Part shown: in pieces, positions 655 to 60,551 of the stretch | Layout: each line of letters begins with the position of its first letter | Position numbering within the stretch: position 1 is the first letter of the stretch | From: Patescibacteria group bacterium | Lineage (GTDB): Bacteria > Patescibacteriota > Microgenomatia > UBA8517 | DNA: 64,000 nt | NCBI GenBank assembly: GCA_035291665.1 | Contig: DATDRP010000006.1 | Location: 145,255 to 209,254, forward strand | Direction: 5' to 3' | The notes under the pieces: generated by a model | Told to the model about the DNA's origin: nothing | The model's database searches: none | The model's input: the letters and a program-made list of their open reading frames with translations, nothing else | Translations under genes and position numbers: made by a program

Positions 655-660
655 AATATC

Positions 661-778
661 AGTACAAAGAGAATAGTGAAAAGAAATAAGCAATAAAAAT
701 AGGCAATAAGTTGTGGGATGTGAGTAGTGGGAATTGAGTCTTAAGTATTAAGTTTTAAGTAGTTAGTATTGATATATT
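661..778 (-). repeat. Intergenic mosaic element, inverted copy (C-depleted on + strand)
   Basis: Only 4 C in 118 nt (665, 691, 704, 740). 713-733 is the exact reverse complement of 53106-53126 (21-mer TTCCCACTACTCACATCCCAC). Confidence 0.8.
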
Positions 779-874
779 CCTAATAACTTAATATCGAGTC
801 TCTTATATCCTGCAATCACTTTTTACCATATCCTTGACATTTTTTATTTAATGTATTATCTTTTTGCTCAAGGT

Positions 875-3163: not shown

Positions 3164-3194
3164 GTGTCTTTAAGTATTTATATCCTATATTATT

Positions 3195-3223
3195 TTACTT
3201 CATTTGCTTGGATTTGGTATAAT
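3195..3223 (+). promoter_or_regulatory. Putative rnpB promoter (TTACTT-17 nt-TGgTATAAT)
   Basis: Extended -10 TGGTATAAT at 3215-3223. This places the predicted transcription start about 7 nt downstream, at the first base of the P1 helix (3230). Confidence 0.45.
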
Positions 3224-3229
3224 ATACAT

Positions 3230-3746
3230 GCTTTGGAGAAGGAGTGATCGCCACGTTCAGTTAACATGAACGTGGAGGAAAGTCCAGGCAGCAGTAAGAA
3301 GGGAACGGAGCGTAAGCTCCGACTGGAAGCCAGCTTAGCTGGTGAACAGCTGGTGTCTTTGGTTTGTGAAAATAAACTAAGAACCGAATCTGAATTGACA
3401 GATTTGGAGAGTCACAGAGACGATCCTTCGGTTAAACTTGAGGAATTACGACATTAATCAGCAAGTAACTTTGCGATAGATGACTAATCCTTAGGCACAT
3501 TGAAGGGGTGAAACGCTGATAATCCCACCCGCTGCAACCTCCGACTATCCCACCCTTTTTATTTTTTATAAAGTAAAAAGACAAAGCAGCTTACCTGAAA
3601 TTTATTAGGAATGATAGAAATATCAATTCAATAAAGGCGGGATGAAGCTTGAGGGCAGTCCTGATTAATTCGGGACAACTCCGATTTAATCGGAGTTAGA
3701 CAGATGATCACTTAGAAACAGAACCTGGCTTACTATTCTCCAAAGC
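3230..3746 (+). ncRNA. rnpB: RNase P RNA (bacterial type), unusually long
   Basis: Conserved GGAGGAAAGTCCAGGC (about 3274-3289), GGGGTGAAACGCTG (about 3505) and ACAGAACCTGGCTTAC (3717-3732). The P1 helix pairs CTTTGGAGAA (3231-3240) with TTCTCCAAAG (3736-3745). Confidence 0.88.
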
Positions 3747-3752
3747 CTTAAG

Positions 3753-3780
3753 AAACCCACAAGTATTTGTGGGTTTTTTC
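3753..3780 (+). terminator. Rho-independent terminator after rnpB
   Basis: AAACCCAC - loop - GTGGGTTT stem followed by a T-run. Confidence 0.7.
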
Positions 3781-3821
3781 ATGAATAATGAATAGCAAAG
3801 TTTTCACCGAAGGAGGGGTTT

Positions 3822-3843
3822 TTACTATTCTCCAAAGCCTTAA
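3822..3843 (+). repeat. Duplicate of the rnpB 3' end (copy of 3730-3751)
   Basis: Exact 22-mer TTACTATTCTCCAAAGCCTTAA occurs at 3730-3751 and 3822-3843. Both copies are followed by AAACCC and a hairpin. Confidence 0.85.
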
Positions 3844-3870
3844 AAAACCCCGATGGAGTCGGGGTTTTTT
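3844..3870 (+). terminator. Second Rho-independent terminator
   Basis: CCCCGA - TGGAG - TCGGGG stem-loop followed by TTTTTT. Confidence 0.6.
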
Positions 3871-3900
3871 AGTTGCAAGGAAGGATGTTAAAATTAAGTT

Positions 3901-4095
3901 ATGAATACATTCTTTTTCATGATTTCAATCCTCTGTTTCATGCATGCTTTGAGAGACTATCTTCAAATGAAGGGAATTAACAACTGGTTTACAGAATTCG
4001 GACATATTTGGAAAAAACCGGAATGGGAAAAATATAGTGCAGTATTTTTTTCTATTTTGGGATTGATATTGTTATTTTTCGCAATTAGAAATTAG
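3901..4095 (+). CDS. Small hypothetical membrane protein (64 aa)
   Basis: ORF with two hydrophobic segments. No recognisable family. Confidence 0.35.
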   Translation: MNTFFFMISILCFMHALRDYLQMKGINNWFTEFGHIWKKPEWEKYSAVFFSILGLILLFFAIRN

Positions 4096-4189
4096 ATCAA
4101 TTAGTAATTTTTTAGACTCGTTTATGTAATATAATAAAAACATAGCTTTACCTTTATTTAATATATGAGGTAGAAAGTGGTGCCTGCCT

Positions 4190-11297: not shown

Positions 11298-11427
11298 GGG
11301 CAGGTACATTGATATAAAGTATAGCATTTGGCATAATGGTAGAAAGAAGATGCTCAAAACTATTGTTTTGGACGTTTTGGTTTGGTTAGAAAAAATATAA
11401 TTAGGTAGTATGGTTATTTTCAAATTT

Positions 11428-11453
11428 CTTAATATCTTAGTATCTTAATATCT
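11428..11453 (+). repeat. CTTAATATC-type 26-nt repeat (partner at 1161-1186)
   Basis: CTTAATATCTTAGTATCTTAATATCT lies in the divergent intergenic region of the pilus locus. Confidence 0.65.
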
Positions 11454-17242: not shown

Positions 17243-17848
17243 TTACTTCGGACGCGTGAGAACAAAAACCAAACCAATTATTGCGACGAGAGCAAGACCC
17301 GATGCAAGTCCCGCCCGCTTTAACCCGAGTATAACTTTATCGCGAACTGAGGATTTTTCAGGTGTTGGTGTGGGGGATTCTTGACTTTCTTCACCTGTTG
17401 CTTCGGGATTCTCCGGGAGATTTTCGGTTGGCTTTTCCAAAAACGTAATTGGCTTGACACTCCCTCTCATAACAACTTCACCCGCAGGTAGTTTAGTTTT
17501 TGCATTTTTTTCAGTTGTGATAAAAAGACTTGCAAAAGGAACTTTTGATACGTATTCACCCTTGCCAAGTCCGATTTGCCCAAGTGCGAAGGGATCGCCC
17601 CCGGCTACCGGGTTTGCCCAGAGAATATAGGTGTATATCGATCCATCAACCGGGTAAAGGATGTTTCGGCATGAAACAATTACACGGTATGAACCGGTTT
17701 GCATTTGTAGTGATGCGGCGAAACATTTGTAATCAAGTTCTGTGGTACTGCGAAGTTCAAAAGTGCCATCGGATGCATGAACGACCGTAAACCCTAAGAG
17801 TAAATATATAGAAAAACCAAAAATGAAGGTTTTTAAAATTTTTAACAT
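17243..17848 (-). CDS. Hypothetical secreted protein with C-terminal TM anchor
   Basis: N-terminal signal-like helix and C-terminal TM (LALVAIIGLVFVL). The YILWANPVAGGDPFALGQIG segment is reminiscent of RskA-type anti-sigma C-domains (weak). Confidence 0.5.
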   Translation of the reverse strand: MLKILKTFIFGFSIYLLLGFTVVHASDGTFELRSTTELDYKCFAASLQMQTGSYRVIVSCRNILYPVDGSIYTYILWANPVAGGDPFALGQIGLGKGEYVSKVPFASLFITTEKNAKTKLPAGEVVMRGSVKPITFLEKPTENLPENPEATGEESQESPTPTPEKSSVRDKVILGLKRAGLASGLALVAIIGLVFVLTRPK

Positions 17849-17954
17849 ATTATTAATTTCTTAAGATTTATTTTATCAAAATATATTCCAAAATAACACT
17901 AATTAGTATTAATTGGTAACTCGACCGAGACAGCATTTTCAAATTTTTGTAGAA

Positions 17955-32566: not shown

Positions 32567-33901
32567 ATGTTTAAAACTCCTCTTCCTAAAGTGTTGCTGA
32601 TAATATTTCTGACCGTTTTTTCAATATATATTAATCTTCCCGGAAGCTTCACGCTTGATTTAACCCGTTACAAAATAAATTTCAATAAAACGCTTTCGAA
32701 ACCTGATCTAAAAATTGGAAGATTCAATTTGGGGAAAAAGAACGAGCTTATTTTGGGACTCGATCTTCAAGGGGGAAGCCGCTTGGTATTTGAAGCCGAT
32801 ACGGTAAATATAGACAGTTCTGTTTCCGGTGATGCATTGACCGGAACGAAAGATATTATAGAGAAACGGGTAAACCTTTTCGGGGTATCCGAACCCAATG
32901 TTCAGCTTTCCGAATTCGAAGGTAAAAAAAGGATTGTTGTTGAGCTTCCTGGGATAAAAGACATTAAGGAAGCAATAAAAATAATCGGGACTACTGCCCA
33001 GCTTAATTTTGCCGAAGTGAGCGAAGAAGAAGATAAAGGTTTGATTCCGACTGATCTAACCGGAGCGGATCTTGTAAAATCCCAAGTACAATTCGATCAA
33101 AAAACTTCAAAACCGGTTGTCGCCATAGAATTTAATGAAGCGGGCGGCAGTAAGTTTGAAAAATTGACGGAAAAAAATATCGGAAAGCCATTAGTAATCC
33201 TTCTGGATAATAATATTATTTCATATCCCACGGTGCAGGATAAAATTTCGGGCGGATCGGCAGTTATTACCGGAGATTTTACTTTGGACGAGGCAAAAAA
33301 TCTTGCAATTCAGCTTAATGCAGGAGCATTGCCCGTTCCGATCACTTTGGTTGAGCAAAGGACTGTCGGAGCGGCATTAGGTACCGAATCAGTACAAAAA
33401 TCTGTGAATGCGGGAGTAGTCGGCTTAGTTATGGTTATGCTCTTTATGATTCTTTCATATGGACGGATGGGTTTTGTTGCCGATTTAGCGCTCCTCATAT
33501 TCGGAACCATTACACTATCCTTGTATAAATTGATTCCCGTAGTTTTAACTCTTCCGGGAATTGCCGGATTTTTACTTTCGGTTGGTATGGCAGTTGATTC
33601 AAATATTTTGATATTTGAAAGGTTTAAAGAGGAAATAATTAAACGACCTTTTACAGATGCTCTTGAAATATCATTTGGGAAAGCATGGGATTCCATACGT
33701 GACGCCAACATTGCAACCCTGTCAACAGCTTTTATTTTGGCAAATCCTTTTGAATGGAATTTTCTACACACTTCCGGTCCGGTACGCGGTTTTGCTATCA
33801 CACTTGCTTTGGGGATTCTGATCAGTTTATTTACAGGCATTGTCGTTACGAGAAATTTACTAAGGGTTCTGATTCGAAAGAGTGGAAGAGTAAAAGAGTA
33901 G
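32567..33901 (+). CDS. secD: Protein translocase subunit SecD
   Basis: LGLDLQGG, periplasmic domain, and a C-terminal 6-TM block with DSNILIFERFKEE. Confidence 0.9.
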   Translation: MFKTPLPKVLLIIFLTVFSIYINLPGSFTLDLTRYKINFNKTLSKPDLKIGRFNLGKKNELILGLDLQGGSRLVFEADTVNIDSSVSGDALTGTKDIIEKRVNLFGVSEPNVQLSEFEGKKRIVVELPGIKDIKEAIKIIGTTAQLNFAEVSEEEDKGLIPTDLTGADLVKSQVQFDQKTSKPVVAIEFNEAGGSKFEKLTEKNIGKPLVILLDNNIISYPTVQDKISGGSAVITGDFTLDEAKNLAIQLNAGALPVPITLVEQRTVGAALGTESVQKSVNAGVVGLVMVMLFMILSYGRMGFVADLALLIFGTITLSLYKLIPVVLTLPGIAGFLLSVGMAVDSNILIFERFKEEIIKRPFTDALEISFGKAWDSIRDANIATLSTAFILANPFEWNFLHTSGPVRGFAITLALGILISLFTGIVVTRNLLRVLIRKSGRVKE

Positions 33902-33963
33902 AAGAGCTTGAGTATTTTTTTTACTTATACACTTGAACTCTCCTGCTCTTATACACTAATCAT

Positions 33964-35216: not shown

Positions 35217-36644
35217 TTACTTCAGTTTTAAAAGAGCTTCGATGAGCTCATCCGGGTTATTTTTGATTTCTTTAGCAACAACCAAGTCAAATAGCTTTTT
35301 TAAAGCTTCACCGACTTTGGGTCCGGGTTTGAGATTGAGTTTTTTCATAACGGTAACTCCGTTAATCTTCAGATCAGTAACTTTGAATGGCTGCTTTTGA
35401 ACAAGTTTTATCTTCCGTTTGAAATCCTCCAATCTCCAGGAGGTTTCACTAGCACCACCACCGAGTCTGTCAGCAGTTCTTAACGCGAGCATATCGGAGA
35501 CGTTTTCCAGACCAACGTTAGTAATAAACCTTCTCACCGCAGTATCTGTTTGATTTTCGTTGACGCTAAATTGGTGCCAGCGGACAAGTTTTTCCAGTTT
35601 TTCGGACTGTTTTTTTGAAAGCTTAATCCTTTTTGCCAACTTCTTGGCAATATATGTACTTACAACTTCATGATTGTAGAAAGTTATTATCCCGCTGTTC
35701 AATTTTTTATAGGTTGATACTTTTCCCAAATCATGAATTAGTATTGCCAGTTTTGTCACGGGGTCTTCGGTTGGTGCAAATTTCAATGACATAAGAGAGT
35801 GTGTCCCGACGTCGTACACATGGTGTCTCCGGGGAGATTTTTGCTGGATATCGAATGCTTTTTCAAATTCGGGAATAATCTGTTCCATAAGTTTGGTTTT
35901 TTGAAGTAACATTACTCCTTCGTGTGCGTACGGAGACTTCATAATTTTCAGAAGTTCATCTCTCACCCTCTCAGCTGTGATTTTTCGGATCGAGTCAGAA
36001 AGTTCCTTAATCGCAAATAAGGTGTGCTCTTCAATTTGGAAACGGATTTCAGTTGCAATTCTAACCGCACGCATCATCCGAAGGGAATCTTCAGTAAAAC
36101 GTTCGACCGGATTTCCTACTGCCCTAATGAGTTTATTTTCGAGATCTTTTTGACCATCGTAAAGATCAATTAGAGTAAAAGTGCGGGAGAGTGCAAGAGC
36201 CTGAGCAGTTTTTTTCTTATACTCTTTTACTCTTTTACTCTCCTGCTCTATTTTCAACGCCATTGCGTTAATGGTGAAGTCGCGTCTTTTGAGGTCGTCA
36301 GTAAGTGTTTTTCCCCACAAGACTTTGTCTGGTCTTCGCGAATCGCTATAACCGTGTTCAGTTCTGAAAGTCGTAATTTCGTAAGGTCTTTCTCCTTCAA
36401 TTTCGTTTGGGATGCCGACGGTTCCGAATTTGTTATCGTAATAAGCATTTTCAAAAAGAGTAAGGATTTGTTCGGGTACAGCATTAGTTGTGAAATCCCA
36501 ATCATAGACAATTTTTCCCATTAAAATGTCCCTTATAGCCCCGCCTACAATATAAATTTCAAAATCTTTTTTTTCAAAAGCGGATATAATTTTTGCTACC
36601 TGACCGGGAACATCAACTTTCATATTATTTGTAGTAAGCATCAA
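35217..36644 (-). CDS. cca: CCA-adding tRNA nucleotidyltransferase with HD domain
   Basis: IVGGAIRD, RDFTINAMA, and the HD motif LAILIHDLGK. Confidence 0.88.
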   Translation of the reverse strand: MMLTTNNMKVDVPGQVAKIISAFEKKDFEIYIVGGAIRDILMGKIVYDWDFTTNAVPEQILTLFENAYYDNKFGTVGIPNEIEGERPYEITTFRTEHGYSDSRRPDKVLWGKTLTDDLKRRDFTINAMALKIEQESKRVKEYKKKTAQALALSRTFTLIDLYDGQKDLENKLIRAVGNPVERFTEDSLRMMRAVRIATEIRFQIEEHTLFAIKELSDSIRKITAERVRDELLKIMKSPYAHEGVMLLQKTKLMEQIIPEFEKAFDIQQKSPRRHHVYDVGTHSLMSLKFAPTEDPVTKLAILIHDLGKVSTYKKLNSGIITFYNHEVVSTYIAKKLAKRIKLSKKQSEKLEKLVRWHQFSVNENQTDTAVRRFITNVGLENVSDMLALRTADRLGGGASETSWRLEDFKRKIKLVQKQPFKVTDLKINGVTVMKKLNLKPGPKVGEALKKLFDLVVAKEIKNNPDELIEALLKLK

Positions 36645-50874: not shown

Positions 50875-51258
50875 ATGCAAACAGGATCTGAACTTTGTAA
50901 AATATGCCCTATTAATGAGAGCTGCAGTTCAGATCTTAACCCTGAAAGTGCAACAAAAAGGAGGCTTGTCATTAATAATCCCTGGAACTGCCGGCATCTG
51001 ACGTGTCCTGCAGGCGTTGAAGAAGCCAAAAAGGAAAAGTCGCGTTTAAGATCTAAAAATATATTTTTTGGTTATGCCTACTTTTCGTCAAAGGACAAAC
51101 CAAGTGTCAGAAGATTTGATATGAAGTTGGGTATTATCGAATCATTTCAGGATGGACAGTGGCATTCAACAGGTCAGTCAATCTATAAAAATTATATTGT
51201 TGATAGAAAAAACTATCCATATAAAAGAATCAGGAATTTCAGTGTGAAGAAAACTTAA
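50875..51258 (+). CDS. Hypothetical Cys-containing basic protein
   Basis: 127-aa ORF. N-terminal CKIC...C...C..C cysteines. No family. Confidence 0.45.
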   Translation: MQTGSELCKICPINESCSSDLNPESATKRRLVINNPWNCRHLTCPAGVEEAKKEKSRLRSKNIFFGYAYFSSKDKPSVRRFDMKLGIIESFQDGQWHSTGQSIYKNYIVDRKNYPYKRIRNFSVKKT

Positions 51259-51323
51259 AACTAAATACCCACTTCCCACAACTCATTTCCTATTTCTTTC
51301 CCCTTTTCTCTATTAGCTAATTT
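51259..51323 (+). repeat. G-depleted intergenic mosaic element (short copy)
   Basis: 1 G in 65 nt. 51278-51314 matches 59601-59637 at 33 of 37 positions. Confidence 0.8.
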
Positions 51324-51776
51324 TTAATCCCTGACTTTTGTCTTTTCTATATCTTCTTCGCTCATGCCGAAATGGTGGGCGATTTCGTGAATAACGGTAT
51401 TTTTGATATTAACAACTGCGTTTTCATAACTATTAGAAATCCGAAGAAGGGGAATTTTAAAGATTGTGATCTTATCAGGGAGCGGTCCGCCGATGCCATA
51501 GTTTCTTCTTTTTGTCTGGGGTATTCCTTCATACAAACCAAGAAGTAATCCTCTGCCTTGGTTTCTCCCGACAAGGTTCATTTGCGATACCGTCGGCCAG
51601 TCAGCAATTACAATTGCCACATTTTCCATTTTGTCTTTGAACTCCTGAGGAAGTTCTTTCAGCGCCTGATCGATAATTTTCCCAAACTCCTGATCATCCA
51701 TGAAGGAAATTATATTTAATCCCAAGCTTAACGGCAAGGAAGGTTCATCGCTGAAGACCAATTCGGCGGCTTTCAT
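51324..51776 (-). CDS. Small zinc metallopeptidase-like protein (HExxH, DUF1025-like)
   Basis: HEIAHHFG motif near the C-terminus. The true start may be the internal Met (MDDQEFGKII). Confidence 0.65.
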   Translation of the reverse strand: MKAAELVFSDEPSLPLSLGLNIISFMDDQEFGKIIDQALKELPQEFKDKMENVAIVIADWPTVSQMNLVGRNQGRGLLLGLYEGIPQTKRRNYGIGGPLPDKITIFKIPLLRISNSYENAVVNIKNTVIHEIAHHFGMSEEDIEKTKVRD

Positions 51777-51826: not shown

Positions 51827-53065
51827 ATGGACGAAGCCGGGGATAACATTACTGGAAGTCATATCTCAAGAAGAGATTTTTTGAATATGGGAGTATTGGG
51901 TTTGGCATCAATTGCTACTGGTAAAAAATTGGTGAATACCATTAATTATCTCGCTGACGCATTAGGTGATAAAGTTGAAGAATCGGGAATTAATAACAAG
52001 CTCCATGAAGTTTTGAAAATTGTTCAGGAAAATTCAAAGATGATTGTTAATTTTTCTGACAAATATGGTATCCCACCGGAAGTTTTGGCGACAGTTGTGT
52101 CTATGGAACATTTGATTATTTTAACCGGTAAAACGAAAAAAGATGGATATGCGATAGGTATTTCGGAATCAGATTCCATAAAAGGATTTACTGATTTAAT
52201 CGAGAAAGAAATTCACCCCGATAAAGCCAATATAGGATTGTGTCAAGTAAATCTTCAGGATGCAATCAATTTTGAAGACCGATTGGTTGGAAAAGATGCG
52301 TTTCCTGATGCGGATAAGCAAAAAAGAGAACAAACGACTTATGAGAGGCTGGAATCTCCTTGGTGGAACATGGTGTATTTTTCAGAAATGCTTAAAAAAG
52401 AGGCCGCTGATACCGGAAAAACTATTACAGACAAACAAGCAGCAACCCAGTTTATCAGAGAAAAATACAATGACGACTCTCATAAGTTAAAAATATTTAA
52501 TGAACTACTGGATGTATATTCAAACTTTTTTCAGGATAAGAAACCGGATGAAAAATTTAAGAGGTGTTCACTCGAAGAAGCGATAAGTGTTTGGAATGAA
52601 TACCCAGAGTATTCACATTTATTCCGAAGTGTTTGGCCTGTTGAATACTTTGTAGTTCATCATACTGCAGGTAAATATCACACTGAGTCGATAATCACAG
52701 CGGAACACATTGCCAAAGGTTTTGGTGACATTGGTTATAACGGAATTATCGGGAATGGCGAACTTACAAGCGACGGTAAATTTTATCCTGGGAGAAGTAC
52801 AAAAAAAGAAGGTGCGCATACTTTGAGCTACAACAAAAAGTCCATCGGTGTTGCTTTGGTCGGGGATTTCAATATAACTGAACCCACAACGCTACAACTG
52901 GATTCATTAAGGAAAGCCATTATTGCCAGTTCTGCAATTTATGAGATTGATCCTTTCAAAGTAGTTGGCCACAGAGAACTAAATGATACGCAGTGTCCGG
53001 GAAATAATTTTACAACTGATAAATTCAAAAGACCGGTAGATGTGGCCGCAGGGAAAATAGTATAG
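51827..53065 (+). CDS. Secreted N-acetylmuramoyl-L-alanine amidase (Amidase_2/PGRP fold) with additional N-terminal domain
   Basis: Tat-like SRRDFLNMGVLGLAS. The C-terminal FVVHHTAG...GYNGIIG...AHTLSYNKKSIGVALVGDF...GHRELNDTQCPG is amidase_2. The N-domain contains GLCQVN (SLT-like, weak). Confidence 0.8.
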   Translation: MDEAGDNITGSHISRRDFLNMGVLGLASIATGKKLVNTINYLADALGDKVEESGINNKLHEVLKIVQENSKMIVNFSDKYGIPPEVLATVVSMEHLIILTGKTKKDGYAIGISESDSIKGFTDLIEKEIHPDKANIGLCQVNLQDAINFEDRLVGKDAFPDADKQKREQTTYERLESPWWNMVYFSEMLKKEAADTGKTITDKQAATQFIREKYNDDSHKLKIFNELLDVYSNFFQDKKPDEKFKRCSLEEAISVWNEYPEYSHLFRSVWPVEYFVVHHTAGKYHTESIITAEHIAKGFGDIGYNGIIGNGELTSDGKFYPGRSTKKEGAHTLSYNKKSIGVALVGDFNITEPTTLQLDSLRKAIIASSAIYEIDPFKVVGHRELNDTQCPGNNFTTDKFKRPVDVAAGKIV

Positions 53066-53200
53066 AAAAACTTAACTCCAAATAACTTAATTTCTATTTT
53101 TCCCTTTCCCACTACTCACATCCCACTTCCCATCACCTACCCCCTACAACCTATCTCCTACCGCTTACAATCCACTTTTTATCTCCATTCATCTATATTT
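53066..53200 (+). repeat. G-depleted intergenic mosaic element
   Basis: 1 G (53163) in 135 nt. Contains the 21-mer 53106-53126 shared, inverted, with 713-733. Confidence 0.85.
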
Positions 53201-53205
53201 GTAGC

Positions 53206-53243
53206 TTTCGGATGGCGTACAATACCAGCATTATGCAGGAAAA
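53206..53243 (+). promoter_or_regulatory. 38-bp conserved 5' module, copy 1 (contains TACAAT 53218-53223 and ATG 53233)
   Basis: Identical to 53517-53554 at 34 of 38 positions. Confidence 0.6.
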
Positions 53244-53526
53244 TGAAAAACCATCAATTTGTCAACGGAACTTTATGCTGGATTGCAAGCCCGGCTGTCC
53301 TCTTTATGCTTATTCCAAGAATTCCGTTCAAACTTTGGCGGATCAACACGGAGTGACTTTTGATGAAGCAATAAAAAAGATCCGAAGTATGCGCTTTGAT
53401 CAACAAGTGCAGATTCTGGCTTTAATAAAGGGTGGTTTACAATCCGTAAAAGAGAAGAGGGGGATTGTTTTGGAATGCGATAATGAGAAAAATGGGTTAA
53501 TTTCGGACCATTTTGGTTTCGGATAG
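53233..53526 (+). CDS. Hypothetical small protein (97 aa from ATG 53233, or 104 aa from 53212)
   Basis: ORF with CQRNFMLDCKPGC. The start is chosen by analogy with the duplicated module. No family. Confidence 0.45.
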   Translation: MQENEKPSICQRNFMLDCKPGCPLYAYSKNSVQTLADQHGVTFDEAIKKIRSMRFDQQVQILALIKGGLQSVKEKRGIVLECDNEKNGLISDHFGFG

Positions 53527-53554
53527 CGTACAATACCATCATCATGCCGGAAAA
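53517..53554 (+). promoter_or_regulatory. 38-bp conserved 5' module, copy 2 (TACAAT 53529-53534, ATG 53544)
   Basis: Same TACAAT-to-ATG spacing as copy 1. Overlaps the stop codon of the upstream ORF. Confidence 0.6.
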
Positions 53555-53786
53555 GTGGTTTCGAAGGGTAGAAAATTTGGCAATTATTCCAGTAATAGGT
53601 GGTGATTTACCGGGTATGTATAGGGAGTTTCCACCTGAACTTCATGATGCTTTTGAGGAAGGTAAAAAAGCACTGGTTCCCGGTGAACAGTCTTATATAT
53701 CTATGAGGGGTCCTGTAAAGTATGGTGGTTTTGAAAGCAAAGTATTCATCGTTTCGAAGATCACTCTCGTAAAAGTTGCAGGGTGA
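53544..53786 (+). CDS. Hypothetical small protein (80 aa)
   Basis: ORF immediately after module copy 2. No family, and no similarity to the neighbouring small ORF. Confidence 0.45.
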   Translation: MPEKWFRRVENLAIIPVIGGDLPGMYREFPPELHDAFEEGKKALVPGEQSYISMRGPVKYGGFESKVFIVSKITLVKVAG

Positions 53787-53787
53787 G

Positions 53788-54029
53788 AAACTACTAAAAA
53801 CTTAAAACTGAATACTAAATACTCACAACTCACTTCCCACATCTCACTTCCCATTTCTTTTCGCTTTTCTCTATTCTCTTAATTCCTTAATTCCTATATT
53901 CCTAATTTCTTATCTTCATTTCCCACAACTCACTTCTCACTACTCATTTCCTACTTCCTACCTCCTACAACCTATAACCATTGCCCCTCTCATTTCTCAC
54001 ATCCCACATCCCATCTCTTACAACCTACC
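53788..54029 (+). repeat. G-depleted intergenic mosaic element (long copy)
   Basis: 3 G (53810, 53863, 53983) in 242 nt. 53849-53906 matches 59611-59668 at 54 of 58 positions. Confidence 0.9.
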
Positions 54030-54056
54030 GATCAGTGTTAATATACCAATATAAGT

Positions 54057-55028
54057 ATGAAGAAAATAATTGCCGCTATTTTACTATTATTAACAGCCGC
54101 ATTTGTGTTTTTCGGTTGGCAATATTTTGCTCCGGTTGGTTCATCCGAAGATCTTGTGGTTTTTGTCGTTCCGGAAAAAATGCCGGATTTTAATGTACCC
54201 GAAGAACTGTATAAGCAAAAATATATTAAAAGTTCCAAGGCCTTCCGGTTCCTTCTTGAAAATTTTGCACCGGGAGTAGAGATAAAACCCGGCGGATATA
54301 AAATAAGTCAAAACATGAATGCTTGGCAGGTTATGAAAAAGATTACAGGACAAGAGGATTTGAAATGGGTAACAATTTCTTATTGCCCCCGGAAAGAACA
54401 GGTTGGCGAGAAGCTTGCAGAAGTCTTGGGGTGGAACGACCTGAATCTAAGTGATTGGAATTCGCTCTATAAAAATACCAAACAGGAGTATTTTGAAGGA
54501 GTCTATTATCCGGATACATATCTGATTCCGGTTGACGAATCCCCATCACAAGTTGCCGGAAGATTTATAAACCGTTTCAATGAAAAGTTCGCACCTTTAT
54601 CGGAAAAGTTTATAGAAAAAAATATCAAATGGACGACAGGTCTCAAGATTGCCTCACTTATAGCCCGCGAAGCAGGAGGAACAGAGGATATGAATATAAT
54701 ATCTGCCGTAATCTGGAACCGTTTGGACGGGGGAATGCCGCTTCAGATTGATGCAACGATGCAATACACTCTCGGAAAAAATGAGGATGGCAGCTGGTGG
54801 GGAAATATTGATCTTTCAGAAAAAGATAAAGACTCGCCCTATAATAGCTATATGTATAAAGGACTTCCTCCCACTCCTATTTGCAGTCCGAATGTTAGTG
54901 CCATTGAAGCTGTTATTAACCCCGAAGAAACCGATTGTCTATTTTATCTGCATGACAAGAATAAAAATATTCATTGCGCGGTTTCCTACAAAGACCATCT
55001 GAAGAATATCCAAAAATATTTGAAGTAA
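54057..55028 (+). CDS. mltG: Endolytic murein transglycosylase MltG (YceG-like)
   Basis: N-terminal TM. YFEGVYYPDTY, ASLIAREA, VIWNRL, QIDATMQY, YNSYMYKGLPPTPICSP. Confidence 0.88.
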   Translation: MKKIIAAILLLLTAAFVFFGWQYFAPVGSSEDLVVFVVPEKMPDFNVPEELYKQKYIKSSKAFRFLLENFAPGVEIKPGGYKISQNMNAWQVMKKITGQEDLKWVTISYCPRKEQVGEKLAEVLGWNDLNLSDWNSLYKNTKQEYFEGVYYPDTYLIPVDESPSQVAGRFINRFNEKFAPLSEKFIEKNIKWTTGLKIASLIAREAGGTEDMNIISAVIWNRLDGGMPLQIDATMQYTLGKNEDGSWWGNIDLSEKDKDSPYNSYMYKGLPPTPICSPNVSAIEAVINPEETDCLFYLHDKNKNIHCAVSYKDHLKNIQKYLK

Positions 55029-55166: not shown

Positions 55167-58100
55167 TTGAGAATGCGGACGTTTTCAAGAAAGCTATCAT
55201 ATCTTCTTTGTTTTACTCTTCTTTTTTACCAACTCTCCCTTTTTTTATTCAACGATGCAAAAACCGCACAAGCAACTACGGCATCATATCAAGTGTCAAC
55301 TTCTACTGATGATGTAAACGAAGACGGCGGGACAATGAATTCAACAAGTACCAGTATTTGGGTGGGAACGGGCGGATCCACAAGCCAAAGTTACACCGGT
55401 TTCCGATTTACCAACGTAAGTATTCCCCAAGGATCAACTATTACATCTGCTTATATAGAGCTTTGGTCTATCCAAGATTCATGGATTGATACCGGTTATC
55501 AAATCGGGGCAGAAAATGTCGGCAATAGTACAACTTTCACAAGTACAACAAAGCCGTCACAACGGGCTCTGACAACCGCCGTGGTCAACTATTCATCAAG
55601 CTCCCATTGGTTAATCAACACTTGGTATCAGGATGCAAACATACCCTCAGTTATTCAGGAAGTTGTTAACCGTACTGATTGGACAAGCGGTAATGCGTTG
55701 TCGATTATTTACAAGGGAACTTCCGCAGCATGGGGTAGAAAGTATGCATCAAGCTATAACGGGAACCCATCCTATGCTCCGCGTTTAGTTGTTGCATTTG
55801 AAGCCGCAACCACGCCTAGTCCGACGCCGCCGCCGACGCCCACTCCCACTGAAACTCCGACTCCTACACCAACAGAAACACCAACTCCTACTCCTACCGA
55901 ATCTCTAACTCCGACTCCCACGGAAATCCCCACTCCCACTCCGACCGAGACGCCAACGCCAATGCCTACCCCAACAGCCTCGGTTACCCCGACACCTCAG
56001 CCACCTTCGGAATGGACGCAGCTCGGACATGACGCACAGCATTCATCGTACACGGAACAATTTGTCCCAACCCCATGGAAGTGGAAATGGTCATGGAACG
56101 GACCCGACGCAGCAGGAAATGTACGTGCGGATAAACTGAATTATCCCGGAAGCAGTGATTTTACAACTCCGGGTATCCCTCGGAATATTCAACCGGTGAC
56201 CGGTGGGGGTAAAGTATATATTGCTGCCGGAAATTTCGGTGTTTACGCCCTTAATGAGGAAGACGTAAATACTGACAGTTTTGCAGATGTTTTGTGGAAC
56301 GTAAATCCGGTTGCTGGTGGTGGAGTTAAGTCAACTCCCGCATACGATAGCGAAACTGGAGCATTATTTGTTCTTGGAACAAATGGCGTTGTTTACAAAT
56401 TGGATACCCTTAACAGCGGGATCGTGATTGGAGAATTTAATACAAATCAAAGTTATGCACCATATACAACAAGTGCTGACCGATACAATCGGGTAGCGTT
56501 GCCGACATCCCCCACACTTTCGGGAAACCGGTTATTTGTATCGATGGGACAGAAAGTTTTTGCACTGGACAAAAACAATCTTAGTAATCTTATATGGGAG
56601 TACGATGCGGGAGCAGAAGTTTATACACCGCCTGCATACTCAACTGTCAGGGATATGGTCTTTGTTGCATCTCAGGATTTGACACCCGGTCCGGATGGAA
56701 AACTTCATATTTATACGCATGCAATATCAAATTCTAATGGACTGGAATTGTGGAAGACTAGCATCACTAATATCACCGGTGTTGAAGCGGGAGACCCCAA
56801 CCCGCCTCCAAATTACACCAGCCAGGTAAGAGCGGAAGTACTTAACGGTTGGCCGGTTATTGCTGAAGAACATGGTCTGGTTTTTATCAAATTAAGACTT
56901 AATTGGAATACGATGTGGACTTGGAGTCCCTGGTCAACGAGCAATGAGACGAACCGGACGAGGCTTCTTTCCAATCCAACACAACAAGCTCTGATTGCTC
57001 TTTCAATGGATAGCGGGAGCCAACCGTTTGTTGTCAATATCGGTCACGGAGGCTATGGAGATGGATTCATCCCGATGGGACCCCAACCGGTTGTAAAGAG
57101 GTTTGCCGATGGGAGTGAAGTTGTCTATACGATGGTAAGGGGAGACAGTCAATCCGGTGTTGACGGTCGTTCGGATACCCACTTTGGGGAGTTGGTTTTG
57201 GATTCAACAACAGCAACCGGATTTGAACCGGGCTATGTCAGATGGATTGAATACGGTAATTATGGTTGGCCGGCAAATTCAAATAATGATACTCCGCCGA
57301 CAGATGAGCAGCCGAATGTATCAATGTCAGGAAACTATCTTTTCGGAGGCCACTGGGCTGTTGGGAATGCGATGGAAATCGTTGATAGGAATGCAAATTT
57401 GGGAGGCTATTCAAACCCCATCACAACAGAACCGATTCCGAATATCGCTTTAATGACAAATTCGTCAACTGTTCCGGAAGGATTTGACTCTTCACACTAT
57501 GTTTCACACAATTTTGGCATGGCAACGAATGGGGAATGGAGGGCGTTGCCTCCCGGATTTTACGTATATTGGAATCAAGGGCATCTTTATGATCAATACT
57601 GGAGCGACTACTCTACCTGGACAGTTAGTAATAATACCGTTTACTATTTGACGAATGATGGTGCACTTGTTGCTTTAGATCACAATAGTGGCAGTCCTAC
57701 ACCTACACCAACACCCAGTCCAACTGCCACGCCTACTCCCACTGAAACTCCGACTCCGATACCGACCGAGATACCAACACCTACGCCAACTGAGATTCCT
57801 ACCCCGACACCGACTGACATTCCGGCTCCGACTCCAACAGAAATACCTACTCCGACACCTACGGATTCTCCCACTCCAACGCCGACTGATACGCCCACTC
57901 CCACGGACACACCCACTCCGACACCTCCGCTAGTGATTAATATGGCTGTCATGAGCGACAGCTCTTCTGATGAGTATCGTGCAGACGACAATCGTGCCGG
58001 AGGAACTCAATGGGAGTTAACAACGCTGGCCTGGACCGAGTTATTGGAAAAATATCGCGGATTTAATTTGGGGTCTTGGGGAACGCGTGGGGAGCCAAGA

Positions 58101-59597
58101 CGGACCGGTTATGAATACAATTGGGCAAGGACAGGTGCCGAAGCAGCAGATGTAGTTTTTGCCGGCCAACATACAGGCGTTGCTTCCCAGGCACAGTCGG
58201 GTTTAGTCAATATTGTTTATTTCCAGATAGGAAACAACGATTTTGCATATTACCGAGACGGTGCAGATATATATAACGGTGCTCTTTCAGGACAGGCTTT
58301 AACCGATAAAATTAATGCAATAATTTCAAATATCTCAACTTCTCTCGATACTGTTTTGGATGCAGATCCAAACGTAAAGGTAATTCTTGGAAATATTGCA
58401 GATCCTGGACTATCACCTTATTGGGCAGCACAATTCCCTGATCCGGTAAAAAGGCAGTTGGTTACCGATGCAATAAACCAAACTAATGCGGGTATAACAA
58501 ACCTGCTTCTTACCCGGAGCAGAGTTACTTTATTTGATCAAATGGCTTTTGCAAACGAGCTTATGTCTAAGGTTGTTAATGGTAATTTGGTGATAGGCGG
58601 AGAAAATATCAGCTTAACTCAAAATGGCGATGAACCCCACCATGCAATTTTGGGAGATAATATCCATGGCGGGACAGTAATGGAAGGCTTAGTTGCCAAC
58701 GGTTTGATTCCTCTGGTAAATCAGACAACCGGATCGCAGATTCAATTATTTTCTGAAACCGAAATTTTGAATAATTCTGGTATCTTTCCCAGTCCGACTC
58801 CGACTCCCACGGTGATTCCTACTCCGACACCTACTCCGGTGTTTGAAACTCACTATATATCGGTAAATCCGGACGGAGTTATCGGAGGGGTAGCTGTTGC
58901 CGGAGAAGATATTCTCAAATTCAATACCGTAACTGGTTTGTATGAAACATACTTCGACGGTTCGGATGTTGAGCTTTCGGGAACATCGATTGATGCGTTT
59001 ACCTTTCTTCCCGGAGGCGACATGATTCTGTCTTTTTCCGGAAGCGTTTCAATAACTGGGTTGGGGACAGTCGCTTCGCAGGACTTGGTCAGGTTTACTC
59101 CGCTTTCGACAGGTAATAGTACAAGCGGATCTTTTAGTTTATATTTTGACGGATCAGATGTTGCCTTAAGCAATTCGTCGGAAAATATAGATTCAGTATC
59201 GGTTTTGGAAAATGGGGATATTCTCTTATCAACAAATGGCAGTATTTCCGTAACCGGAGTTTCAGCAAACGATGAAGATATTATCGAATTTACTCCGACT
59301 TCACTCGGTCCGGCAACTTCGGGAAGCTGGTCACTTTATTTTGATGCATCTGATGTTGGATTATCAAGTACGAGCGAAGATATCGATGCTTTGAGTATCG
59401 CGTCATCGGGAGATTTTTATCTTTCAACAAGCGGCAGCTTCAGTGTTACGGGTGTCTCCGGTCAAAATAATGATGTCTTTATCTTTGATCCGTTAACTTT
59501 GGGAGGGGATTCGTCAGGAACTTTTTCCCAGCCGATTTATTTGGACGGAAGCGCTTTCGGATTATCGGGTTTCAACGTTACGGGATACTACAAATAA
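55167..59597 (+). CDS. 1476-aa secreted multidomain protein: unassigned N-domain, PT linker, PQQ-like beta-propeller, PT linker, SGNH/GDSL-like hydrolase, PT linker, four novel ~64-aa repeats
   Basis: Signal/TM at the N-terminus (start TTG 55167 or ATG 55173). Propeller-type repeats ([62 protein letters not shown]). SGNH blocks ([22 protein letters not shown]). Confidence 0.85.
55811..56005 (+). repeat. Coding Pro/Thr linker 1 (degenerate TPTPTE codon repeats)
   Basis: [56 protein letters not shown]... Confidence 0.85.
57694..57930 (+). repeat. Coding Pro/Thr linker 2 (degenerate TPTPTE/D codon repeats)
   Basis: [79 protein letters not shown]. Confidence 0.85.
58878..59594 (+). repeat. Four tandem ~64-aa protein repeats at the C-terminus of the 1476-aa protein
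   Basis: Units begin near 58878, 59073, 59265 and 59460. Consensus: [ED]D[IL]..F.P...[22 protein letters not shown]....GD..LST.GS.SVTGVS. Confidence 0.75.
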
Positions 59598-59825
59598 CTT
59601 ACAACTCATTTCCCATTTATTTTCCCTTTTCTCTAGTCTCTTAGTTCCTTAATTCCTATATTCCTAATATCCTACCCCCTATCTCTAATAACCAATTATC
59701 AAATTCCAAATACCAAACAATAAATTTCTAATATCTAATTTCCAATAAATTTTCTCTTAGTTCCTTAATTCCTTTATTCCTGATATCCTACCTCCTATAA
59801 CCTGCAACCTATAACCATTATACCC
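59598..59825 (+). repeat. G-depleted intergenic mosaic element (long copy with internal 46-nt duplication)
   Basis: 5 G in 228 nt. 59637-59682 and 59753-59798 are identical at 43 of 46 positions. Colinear with 53849-53906 and 53957-53982. Confidence 0.9.
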
Positions 59826-60551
59826 TCACATTCTGTAGCTTAACGCTGAAGTGTTGGCTTTTGTGATATTAACACTTAGGATTTCACCATCATAATTGAA
59901 TACGAATGAAACACGAGCATCAAGATTGTTTGTGATGTATAGATTTTGTCTTGCACTTTTATCAAATCCGCCGGGAAGATAAAAAATTGAAACTCCGTAT
60001 TCCTTCGGAACTTCATTAATAACAGCAAAATTGTGATTTGAAGGATCATATGCAGTCAGTCCTGCATCTTTTGCCGCCCAGTATAAAATTGATGCCAAAT
60101 GGCAGACACCGTCTCCCATAAGATAACCATCGGACTTGAACCCATCCTGATAGTTGAAGCGGGCATTAGTCGTTTTAACTACATTTTTATTAAACTTATC
60201 CAGTATCTGGCTATGAAAAGCAAAGCTTTCTCCCGGGTTCAAATCAAACTTATAGTCCCTGGGTTTTTCAATATTCTCCCAGACGATTTCTGATTTATTT
60301 TTAACTGTCCCGTCCATATAGTTTAAAGTCAGAAGGATATTATCTTTGAATACATCATTTACAAATTTATTGGGATATCTCTCCTCCAAAGATATGGATT
60401 TTGAAGAAAGGGTAGAGTATCCTTCTTCTTCTACGGAATTATTATTTGCCACATTGACCACCTCCGCCGGGGACGACGGGAATAAAATTATCAGTAATAT
60501 AAAAAGATAAAGTAATTTTTTATACATAGGACTCACTTTTTTTTCAGACAT
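59826..60551 (-). CDS. VanW-like protein
   Basis: N-terminal signal/TM. The GDGVCHLASILYWAAKDAGL motif resembles the VanW-domain GGGVCQ.S.TLY core. Confidence 0.6.
   Translation of the reverse strand: MSEKKVSPMYKKLLYLFILLIILFPSSPAEVVNVANNNSVEEEGYSTLSSKSISLEERYPNKFVNDVFKDNILLTLNYMDGTVKNKSEIVWENIEKPRDYKFDLNPGESFAFHSQILDKFNKNVVKTTNARFNYQDGFKSDGYLMGDGVCHLASILYWAAKDAGLTAYDPSNHNFAVINEVPKEYGVSIFYLPGGFDKSARQNLYITNNLDARVSFVFNYDGEILSVNITKANTSALSYRM

Follow-up and report, generated by a model that had tools for sequence, protein, structure and literature searches.

Intergenic Heptamer Repeats

Tandem repeats with a unit of seven nucleotides have been described between the genes of several groups of bacteria. 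Rehm et al. (2015) reported GGGAATC repeats in Xanthomonas and GGGGAYT repeats (STRR-type) in Nostoc, which lie mostly 0-50 bp from stop codons (PMC4692102). As cited in that paper, a 2007 survey found heptamer simple sequence repeats (SSRs) to be over-represented in many bacteria, for which slippage was proposed as the explanation, and the heptamers (STRRs) of Calothrix are cited in both PMC4692102 and PMC4679880. MacGregor (2015) described TAACTGA direct repeats in Beggiatoaceae, cyanobacteria, and Bacteroidetes, and the single-strand RNA-binding proteins S1, Csp, and CsrA have been proposed as their readers (PMC4679880). A function has been established for none of these intergenic heptamer repeats (PMC4692102, PMC4679880). 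The subject of this study is a 242-nt intergenic tract at 53788-54029 of a 64,000-nt stretch of DNA (the window) from a Patescibacteria group bacterium, which is almost free of G on the + strand and is one of a family of five tracts, T1 to T5 (Table 1), the flagged tract being T4. The initial annotation held that no described element class matches the tract; the intergenic heptameric repeats of PMC4692102 and PMC4679880 are such a class, and the tract shares with them its head-to-tail 7-nt units and its position near the ends of open reading frames (ORFs).

Composition and Periodicity of the Flagged Tract

On the + strand the tract comprises 88 T, 86 C, 65 A, and 3 G. The initial annotation placed it right after the stop codon of ORF 53544-53786, found G only at 53810, 53863, and 53983, described the G content of the flanking coding DNA as ordinary, and counted six TCCT within 53884-53970. 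Each of these observations was reproduced: the stop codon is TGA 53784-53786 and the tract begins one base on, the flanking coding DNA contains 21-25% G, and the TCCT words stand at 53884, 53892, 53900, 53949, 53956, and 53963. The depletion of G is far beyond chance, with a probability of 2e-14 for at most 4 G in 243 nt when the expectation is taken from the 16.5% G of the window's other intergenic DNA. The longest G-free runs of the window (119, 115, 97, and 66 nt) all fall within the array family, and the longest G-free run in shuffles (n = 200) has a mean of 42 nt and a maximum of 66 nt. When the whole window was scanned, a C/G ratio above 8 in 78-nt windows was seen only at the five tracts. 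Pooled, the five arrays (796 nt) contain 2.3% G and 31% C, compared with 16.5% and 15%, respectively, in other gaps. An AT-rich tract at 17830-17914, from the same window-wide composition scan, has no words in common with the family.

The tract was initially described as a mosaic of recurring words and as not being a tandem repeat. The latter description does not hold: autocorrelation at lags of 7, 14, and 21 nt gives z = 10.1, 6.8, and 4.6 against shuffles, and Tandem Repeats Finder (TRF), run at a low threshold, divides the tract into seven short arrays with a period of 7, 8, or 14 nt, each of 2.3-5 copies with 68-100% matches, and the unit changes gradually from one end of the tract to the other. 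In the lag-7 comparisons, 44% of positions differ between adjacent units. In a 7-nt register T4 reads TAAAAAC TTAAAAC TGAATAC TAAATAC TCACAAC TCACTTC CCACATC TCACTTC CCATTTC and continues in this manner, and T3 reads TTCCCAC TACTCAC ATCCCAC TTCCCAT CACCTAC CCCCTAC AACCTAT CTCCTAC. The recurring words stand in part, as words are common to the family, but two of the five listed (CCCATTTCTTTTC and CCTACAACCTATAACC) occur exactly only once and recur as near-copies. Due to the 7-nt periodicity and the TRF sub-arrays, the mosaic is a chain of short degenerate heptamer arrays, and the flagged tract is a degenerate array of 7-nt (at times 8-nt) units. Periodicity of this kind is present in five of the 41 intergenic regions of at least 40 nt, which are exactly the five tracts; in the other four, lag-7 z ranges from 3.9 to 6.3, with harmonics at 14 and 21.

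A Family of Five Arrays and a Common Module

The initial view of the tract as one copy in a dispersed, strand-polar family is confirmed by the four related tracts elsewhere in the window, which have words in common with it. T3 contains 2 G in 138 nt (lag-7 z = 3.9, lag-21 z = 3.8) and has a 21-mer in common with T1. T2 contains 1 G in 65 nt (lag-7 z = 4.8) and overlaps the stop codons of both of its neighbours. T5 contains 5 G in 225 nt (lag-7 z = 6.3), and the final codons and TAA stop of a 1476-aa ORF lie within its head; it is made up of two modules, about 59585-59702 and 59703-59822, with an internal duplication of 116 nt. The + strand of T1 is C-poor at 692-778, with a lag-7 z of 6.3 on the reverse complement and TTCCCACTACTCACATCCCAC on the - strand at 713. 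All five arrays are intergenic and each reaches a stop codon; divergent promoter gaps contain none of them, and four of the five are clustered within 9 kb. T2-T5 each lie downstream of a gene on the same strand, such that the C-rich strand is sense to the gene ending beside it, while T1 is inverted relative to both neighbours.

Pairwise similarity extends well beyond the heptamer. Identity is 89% over 74 nt between 53839-53912 (T4) and 59601-59674 (T5) and 79% over 75 nt between 51249-51323 (T2) and 53810-53884 (T4), and 700-733 (T1) is 82% complementary to 53106-53139 (T3) over 34 nt. Seven modules of ~115 nt (T2, T4a, T4b, T5a, T5b, T3, and T1 reversed) all align with a mean identity of 52%, and all have the same order, in which an A-rich head (AAAACTTAAAACT.AATAC) is followed by CCCAC/CTCAC units, a T-rich part, TTCCT, and CCTAC/AACC units. 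This common order indicates that a single polar module gave rise to all the tracts, through tandem duplication and through copying from site to site. The G-free heptamer arrays with their ~115-nt module are a real and statistically striking variant of the intergenic heptamer repeats.

Table 1. Coordinates of the heptamer arrays and their parts in the window
Feature	Position	Strand	Setting or source
T4 (flagged tract)	53788..54034	+	Fills the gap from the stop of ORF 53544-53786 to the promoter-like region of mltG/yceG (start 54057)
T4 modules	T4a 53796-53913; T4b 53914-54034	+	Module alignment
T4 sub-arrays	53793-53823; 53824-53853; 53856-53880; 53873-53912; 53929-53950; 53948-53968; 53998-54013		TRF
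T3	53054..53203	+	Between the stop of the Amidase_2 gene (51827-53065) and the small ORF 53212/53233-53526
T2	51247..51339	+	Fills the convergent gap between the 127-aa ORF 50875-51258 (+) and the Zincin_1 gene 51324-51776 (-)
T5	59585..59822	+	Heptamer/octamer array filling the gap where the 1476-aa ORF 55167-59597 (+) converges with the VanW gene 59826-60551 (-)
T1 (inverted)	660..790	-	Between the RNase Y gene (end 654, +) and the HU gene (851-1153, +)

With fair confidence, the arrays can be ascribed to heptamer repeats that arose by slippage and to the copying of a ~115-nt module among neighbouring 3' gaps. Heptamer units were most likely amplified by replication slippage and diverged through point changes, after which unequal or ectopic recombination carried the module to new positions, both in the same intergenic region and in others. 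The arrays are probably retained only in places that tolerate them, between a stop codon and the following promoter.

Assembly, Host, and Relatives

The arrays are not an artefact of assembly. A Joint Genome Institute (JGI) contig from a different sample, C687J35164_10000059, is 100% identical over 11,745 nt, including T2-T4. The sequence of T1 and T5 is the same in contigs of that second sample, and a further contig begins within the flagged tract, at 54007. No difference in array copy number was found between the independent samples, although this is a weak comparison as they represent the same population. Contig C687J35164_10000059 ends at 55801, the start of the 24-nt-period repeats described below. 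The contigs derive from JGI metagenome samples 3300002503 and 3300002120, and the host is an uncultured groundwater bacterium. Its MltG shares at most 73% identity with any other, and its nearest named relatives are Candidatus Woesebacteria.

No further arrays were found in the ~10 kb reached beyond the ends of the window. Nine loci from relatives (~125 kb non-redundant) contain a single heptamer array, which lies in the MltG/VanW convergent gap of a Woesebacteria relative (L133 10971-11080), the position occupied by T5 in the window. This array (GTATTAT GAATTAT GTATAAT GAATTAC ...) is C-poor on the MltG strand; its GTATTAT/GAATTAC units are unrelated to those of the window and its polarity is opposite. 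Based on these loci, the arrays are lineage-specific with a fast turnover. Another Woesebacteria relative carries a bAvd and RVT_1 (reverse transcriptase) gene pair near MltG (L134 4865-6266), which is the arrangement of a putative diversity-generating retroelement. Four matches to the family head pattern ACTTAAAACTNAATAC-N(0-30)-TTCCCAC were obtained in a metagenome collection, all of them due to chance or unrelated, and the module family was not found outside this population in that collection. Scans of the window with Rfam (gathering threshold) and for tRNAs gave nothing.

RNA Properties and a Possible Role in Transcription Termination

The initial annotation anticipated that a transcript of the tract would be largely unstructured, and this is upheld for the G-poor strand: the RNA of 53787-54056 (270 nt) has a predicted minimum free energy of -0.9 kcal/mol and an unpaired centroid. 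The arrays fold at about 0 kcal/mol per nt, compared with -0.12 to -0.24 in other gaps, and for the G-rich strand the predicted fold is no more stable than that of shuffles (z = 0.69). Start-like triplets in T4 number 1 on the G-poor strand and 22 on the complement.

These properties resemble those of the Rho utilisation (rut) sites, which are described by an excess of C over G across 78 nt, YC dimers with 9-13-nt linkers, and a lack of structure (PMC6407284, PMC6144790). The arrays combine a C>G window of at least 78 nt, unstructured RNA, and regular YC spacing. The top 0.1% of 78-nt windows by C/G all lie within arrays (C/G is 86/3 in the flagged tract). Runs of six YC dimers separated by 9-13-nt linkers begin at a density of 0.11-0.13 per nt in T3/T4 and 0.03 in T5, compared with 0.0035 in the whole window, such that they are ~30 times denser in T3/T4; T2, which is short, has none. 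Enrichment in the arrays is 3-fold for CAC and 2-fold for CTT. A hairpin with a T-run follows 2 of 34 gene ends (gap of at least 40 nt).

The near exclusion of G from one strand over hundreds of bases, despite the divergence of the units, points to a constraint on a single strand, most simply RNA. It is proposed that the sense transcript of the co-oriented arrays carries the G-free, C-rich strand and would be free of structure, untranslatable, and without AUG/GUG/UUG or a Shine-Dalgarno-like sequence. A YC dinucleotide every 7 nt would place YC-N12-YC at every second unit, which is the make-up of a very strong rut site. The array may then terminate or insulate adjacent transcription units in a factor-dependent manner, without a hairpin, and G would be kept out by selection against RNA structure. 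That the sense transcript loads Rho and thereby ends or insulates the upstream transcription unit is the tentative proposal made here, and we consider its chances to be somewhat short of even. A more specific form of it, in which the self-copying, lineage-specific, ~115-nt G-free module is a dedicated terminator or insulator whose 'super-rut' RNA recruits Rho or another single-strand RNA-binding factor after the stop codon, is unlikely, perhaps one case in four. If the arrays are Rho-loading zones, they would represent a way for a streamlined genome with few hairpin terminators to end its transcripts, and would supply a sequence rule for predicting such sites; the 'super-rut' form, if true, would mean that, in this lineage at least, intergenic heptamer repeats have a definite function.

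The rut-like loading sites for Rho were among the ideas of the initial annotation, and they remain the best fit to the Rho descriptors (PMC6407284, PMC6144790), although the orientation of the arrays (four of five) is not significant (P about 0.19) and is confounded both with the leading strand and with the direction in which most genes run. With orientation at this level, we infer Rho loading rather than observe it. The proposal is kept tentative because of this and because T1 is inverted, the relatives do without the arrays, and the wider class of heptamer arrays has the opposite polarity and occurs in cyanobacteria that lack Rho. A tblastn search with Escherichia coli Rho, CspA, CsrA, Hfq, and NusG against ~165 kb of sequence gave no match, which is uninformative, and Rho is absent from some small AT-rich genomes (PMC11347177). 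The literature on Rho in the candidate phyla radiation (CPR)/Patescibacteria yielded nothing useful. As Rho-less cyanobacteria also carry such arrays, the heptamer-array class as a whole cannot consist of rut sites. The G-rich strand is sense to the abutting gene end in 48 cases compared with 13 among the matches listed from other genomes (by crude gene calls; see below), and a G-rich-sense trend at gene ends is also reported in PMC4692102. Further points that weigh against Rho loading are found in the window itself. Most gene ends have neither an array nor a hairpin, and in the convergent gaps of T2 and T5 the opposite gene would transcribe the G-rich strand. Finally, the depletion of G could stem from G-free founder units and AT-biased mutation.

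Alternative Explanations

The last point leads to the main rival of Rho loading, in which the arrays are a near-neutral satellite of decaying heptamer microsatellites, without selected function, that is tolerated only in 3' intergenic DNA. Their freedom from G would be inherited from C-rich founders such as TTCCCAC and preserved for a while by AT-biased C->T and C->A changes. Differences between units are indeed mainly C/T (132) and A/T (133), and the over-representation of heptamer SSRs in bacteria, with the slippage proposed for it (a 2007 survey as cited in PMC4692102), is of the kind that this explanation expects. It also accommodates the relatives that lack the arrays and the one with an unrelated array at the same MltG/VanW gap, the concentration of four arrays in a 9-kb region where gene content varies, the lack of significance of gene orientation, and an array head that runs into the 3' end of the 1476-aa ORF, as though nothing short of harm to the protein halts the expansion. 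What it does not readily account for is a G content held so far below that of other gaps despite the 44% divergence of adjacent units, together with a doubling of C. Differences that involve G make up 12 of 59 between the most similar modules and 31 of 336 between adjacent units, so that they are about twice as frequent in recent module copies as in the older unit differences (Fisher p = 0.02, from data that are not independent). The higher share of G among close copies suggests that mutations to G do occur but are neither kept nor propagated. Additionally, small CPR genomes are in general not expected to retain 150-270 nt of useless DNA at four neighbouring sites, and the arrays are identical in independent samples. 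A neutral origin without function is possible but somewhat unlikely, at a little under one in three; if it is correct, the arrays would clearly exemplify a very small genome in which satellite-like DNA persists.

Alternatively, the arrays may be a platform on which a single-strand nucleic-acid-binding protein, one per heptamer, binds the pyrimidine-rich RNA or single-stranded DNA; this binding would determine how stable the mRNA is or how the downstream gene is translated. Candidates are ribosomal protein S1, a KH protein, an RRM-type Rbp, and a protein with a cold-shock domain. The 7-nt unit equals the reported footprint of CspB, which prefers TTCTTTT-type heptamers (PMC4679880), and T4 contains TTCTTTTC GCTTTTC TCTATTC. 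The RNA is predicted to be fully single-stranded, a relative encodes an RRM protein (L132 1702-2079), and mltG and small ORFs without a Shine-Dalgarno sequence stand directly after arrays. The units, however, vary more than a sequence-specific binder would allow, two of the arrays have no downstream gene to regulate, being placed between convergent genes, and there is no conservation in relatives; that no csp, hfq, or csrA was seen in the ~165 kb searched is uninformative. Such a platform appears improbable, on the order of one chance in eight. The two remaining explanations are weak. A role at the level of DNA, either as an array bound by a duplex-DNA or nucleoid protein (a binding array was among the ideas of the initial annotation) or as a recombination linker that shuffles genes in a variable cell-wall locus, would fit arrays that bracket variable gene modules around a conserved MltG-VanW-YkuD core (the 1476-aa gene is absent in L133), stretches of 30-75 nt at 80-90% identity between modules, which are enough for homologous recombination, and a G-free strand that is the positive-GC-skew strand in four of five arrays. 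This role is nevertheless highly improbable, as the 7-bp period is off the helical repeat, the conserved core that a sequence-specific protein would need is missing, no recombinase or mobile-element gene lies nearby, and no target-site duplications or terminal inverted repeats were found. The least likely explanation, and a very improbable one, is an antisense AGGA-rich RNA that acts as a Shine-Dalgarno mimic or CsrA-type sponge. It was put forward in the initial annotation, and the complement of T4 does contain six AGGA in 53884-53970 as well as GGAGG, and the G-rich strand of T1, T2, and T5 would form the 3' end of the transcript of a neighbouring gene. It nonetheless finds no support, in that CsrA sponges present GGA in hairpin loops while the G-rich strand is no more structured than its shuffles, T4 shows no evident promoter from which an antisense RNA could start, genes here are largely without Shine-Dalgarno sequences, and csrA was not seen in the DNA searched.

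A number of described element types were also considered and rejected. No run of at least four G3+ tracts with 1-7-nt loops occurs on either strand of the whole window, ruling out a G-quadruplex repeat; the complement of T4 has six scattered GGG runs. A hairpin element of the MITE (miniature inverted-repeat transposable element) or REP type is ruled out by the lack of local inverted repeats, of predicted structure, and of an inverted partner array within 300 nt. A phase-variable SSR does not agree with degenerate units, a 3'-intergenic position, and identical sequence in independent samples. Intrinsic terminators were dismissed as well; between 45 and 64 kb, terminator-like sites number 20, about what chance would give (17.6).

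Neighbouring Genes and Other Repeats in the Window

Immediately downstream of T4, at 54036-54059, TGTTAATAT resembles an extended -10 element 12 nt ahead of the ATG of mltG; it was recognised by eye and was not listed by the promoter scan. Based on this element and the absence of a Shine-Dalgarno sequence, mltG seems to be transcribed from a promoter of its own, with a very short leader. Upstream of T4, a 38-nt segment (TTTCGGATrGCGTACAATACCAkCATyATGCmGGAAAA) is present in two copies, 53206-53243 and 53517-53554, which place a -10-like TACAAT 9 nt ahead of the ATG of the small ORFs 53233-53526 and 53544-53786. The duplicated segment suggests leaderless-type promoters for the two ORFs, whose proteins are unrelated to one another. 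Among 5.8 billion proteins, the product of ORF 53544-53786 has no homologue but itself. The product of the 1476-aa ORF is a surface-type protein, for which no paralogue was found on its 606-kb contig, and the 24-nt-period repeats of this ORF (55788-55990, 57680-57930, and 58790-58834) encode Thr/Pro-rich linkers.

Other repeats occur elsewhere in the window. A 49-nt unit is present twice, at 3730-3778 and 3822-3870, in a gene-poor 1-kb stretch (3164-4189); the copies are 82% identical and each has a clean hairpin and T-run terminator at its end. Small period-8 arrays are located at 11423-11453, 33878-33906, 36215-36249, and 1161-1186. One of them, (AATATCTT)x3.9, lies in a divergent gap, and the others are arrays of AAGAGTAG and TCTTTTAC, one unit being the reverse complement of the other, and are found at or within ORF ends.

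Heptamer Arrays in Other Genomes

A scan of other genomes with TTCCCACWWCTCACWTCYCAY, one genome per species, returned at least 119 stretches compared with a rough chance expectation of ~ten, although the scan favours arrays because the pattern itself consists of three heptamers. Arrays of (TTCCCAC/TTCTCAC)n are present in more than 100 genomes from many phyla, and the carriers listed include Verrucomicrobia, Planctomycetes, Clostridia, Acidobacteria, Nitrospirae, Spirulina, Moorella, Pelotomaculum, and others. Among the matches listed, tandem (CACTTCC/CACTTCT)n tracts are G-poor for up to 280 nt and, by crude gene calls, mostly intergenic. A few of these (TTCYCAC)n arrays pair with an inverted array to give a long hairpin. 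The cultured carriers Moorella thermoacetica (DSM 21394), Pelotomaculum propionicicum (MGP), Rubritalea profundi, and Spirulina sp. CCNP1310 make experiments possible.

In metagenome-assembled genomes (MAGs) of Verrucomicrobia (L040, L043, L061, L089, L094, L098, and L117), (TTCYCAC)n stands beside shared palindromic REP-like units, e.g., GCCAGCCGCAGGCTCTGGACTGCTGTGAGCAATCACAGCTCTC..., and a CCTCTCCCCACAAGCC motif is also found beside the arrays. The combination of array, REP-like unit, and CCTCTCCCCACAAGCC suggests composite dispersed intergenic elements. Three viral contigs (L140 3040-3150, L139 4690-4790, and L136 1890-1990) show the order stop codon, G-rich heptamer array, inverted C-rich array, ribosome-binding site, and ATG, in which the arrays and their inverted partners between phage genes are predicted to form a long hairpin.

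Comparison with Known Systems

Mosaic intergenic repeats such as BIME/REP, BOX, and ERIC are built on palindromic, hairpin-forming units. The arrays are similarly dispersed, modular, and non-coding, and are found at gene 3' ends in both orientations; unlike these elements, they have a G-free strand that cannot self-pair and no flanking inverted repeats. Natural rut sites are likewise C-rich, G-poor, unstructured, and untranslated over at least 78 nt, with YC dimers at regular spacing (PMC6407284, PMC6144790), but they are non-repetitive, form no sequence family, and have a C/G of about 1.2-3, compared with about 29 in the arrays.

The (TTCYCAC)n arrays of other genomes contain the unit words of T3/T4 in G-poor, mostly intergenic tracts, mix variants within an array, and in some MAGs are present in several copies per genome. 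They differ from the arrays of the window in being much more regular and in having the G-rich strand mostly sense (by crude gene calls), and none has the head or tail modules seen in the window. The TAACTGA repeats are also intergenic heptamer direct repeats, with one heptamer found across unrelated phyla as is the case for (TTCYCAC)n. Their sets of 2-6 copies lie just upstream of start codons and contain G, whereas the window arrays hug stop codons and exclude it.

There is also a close resemblance to the repeats of Xanthomonas and Nostoc, which are tandem 7-nt repeats with a strong G/C strand asymmetry, intergenic, near or overlapping a stop codon, dispersed over many gaps, and different in length and sequence between related species, as are the arrays described here. 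The former are near-perfect, typically have 4 units, and form G-quadruplexes, while the latter are highly degenerate and 65-270 nt long, have the C-rich strand sense to the upstream gene in four of five cases, and contain a ~115-nt module that is copied between sites. The window arrays are of an already known kind and do not constitute a new class.

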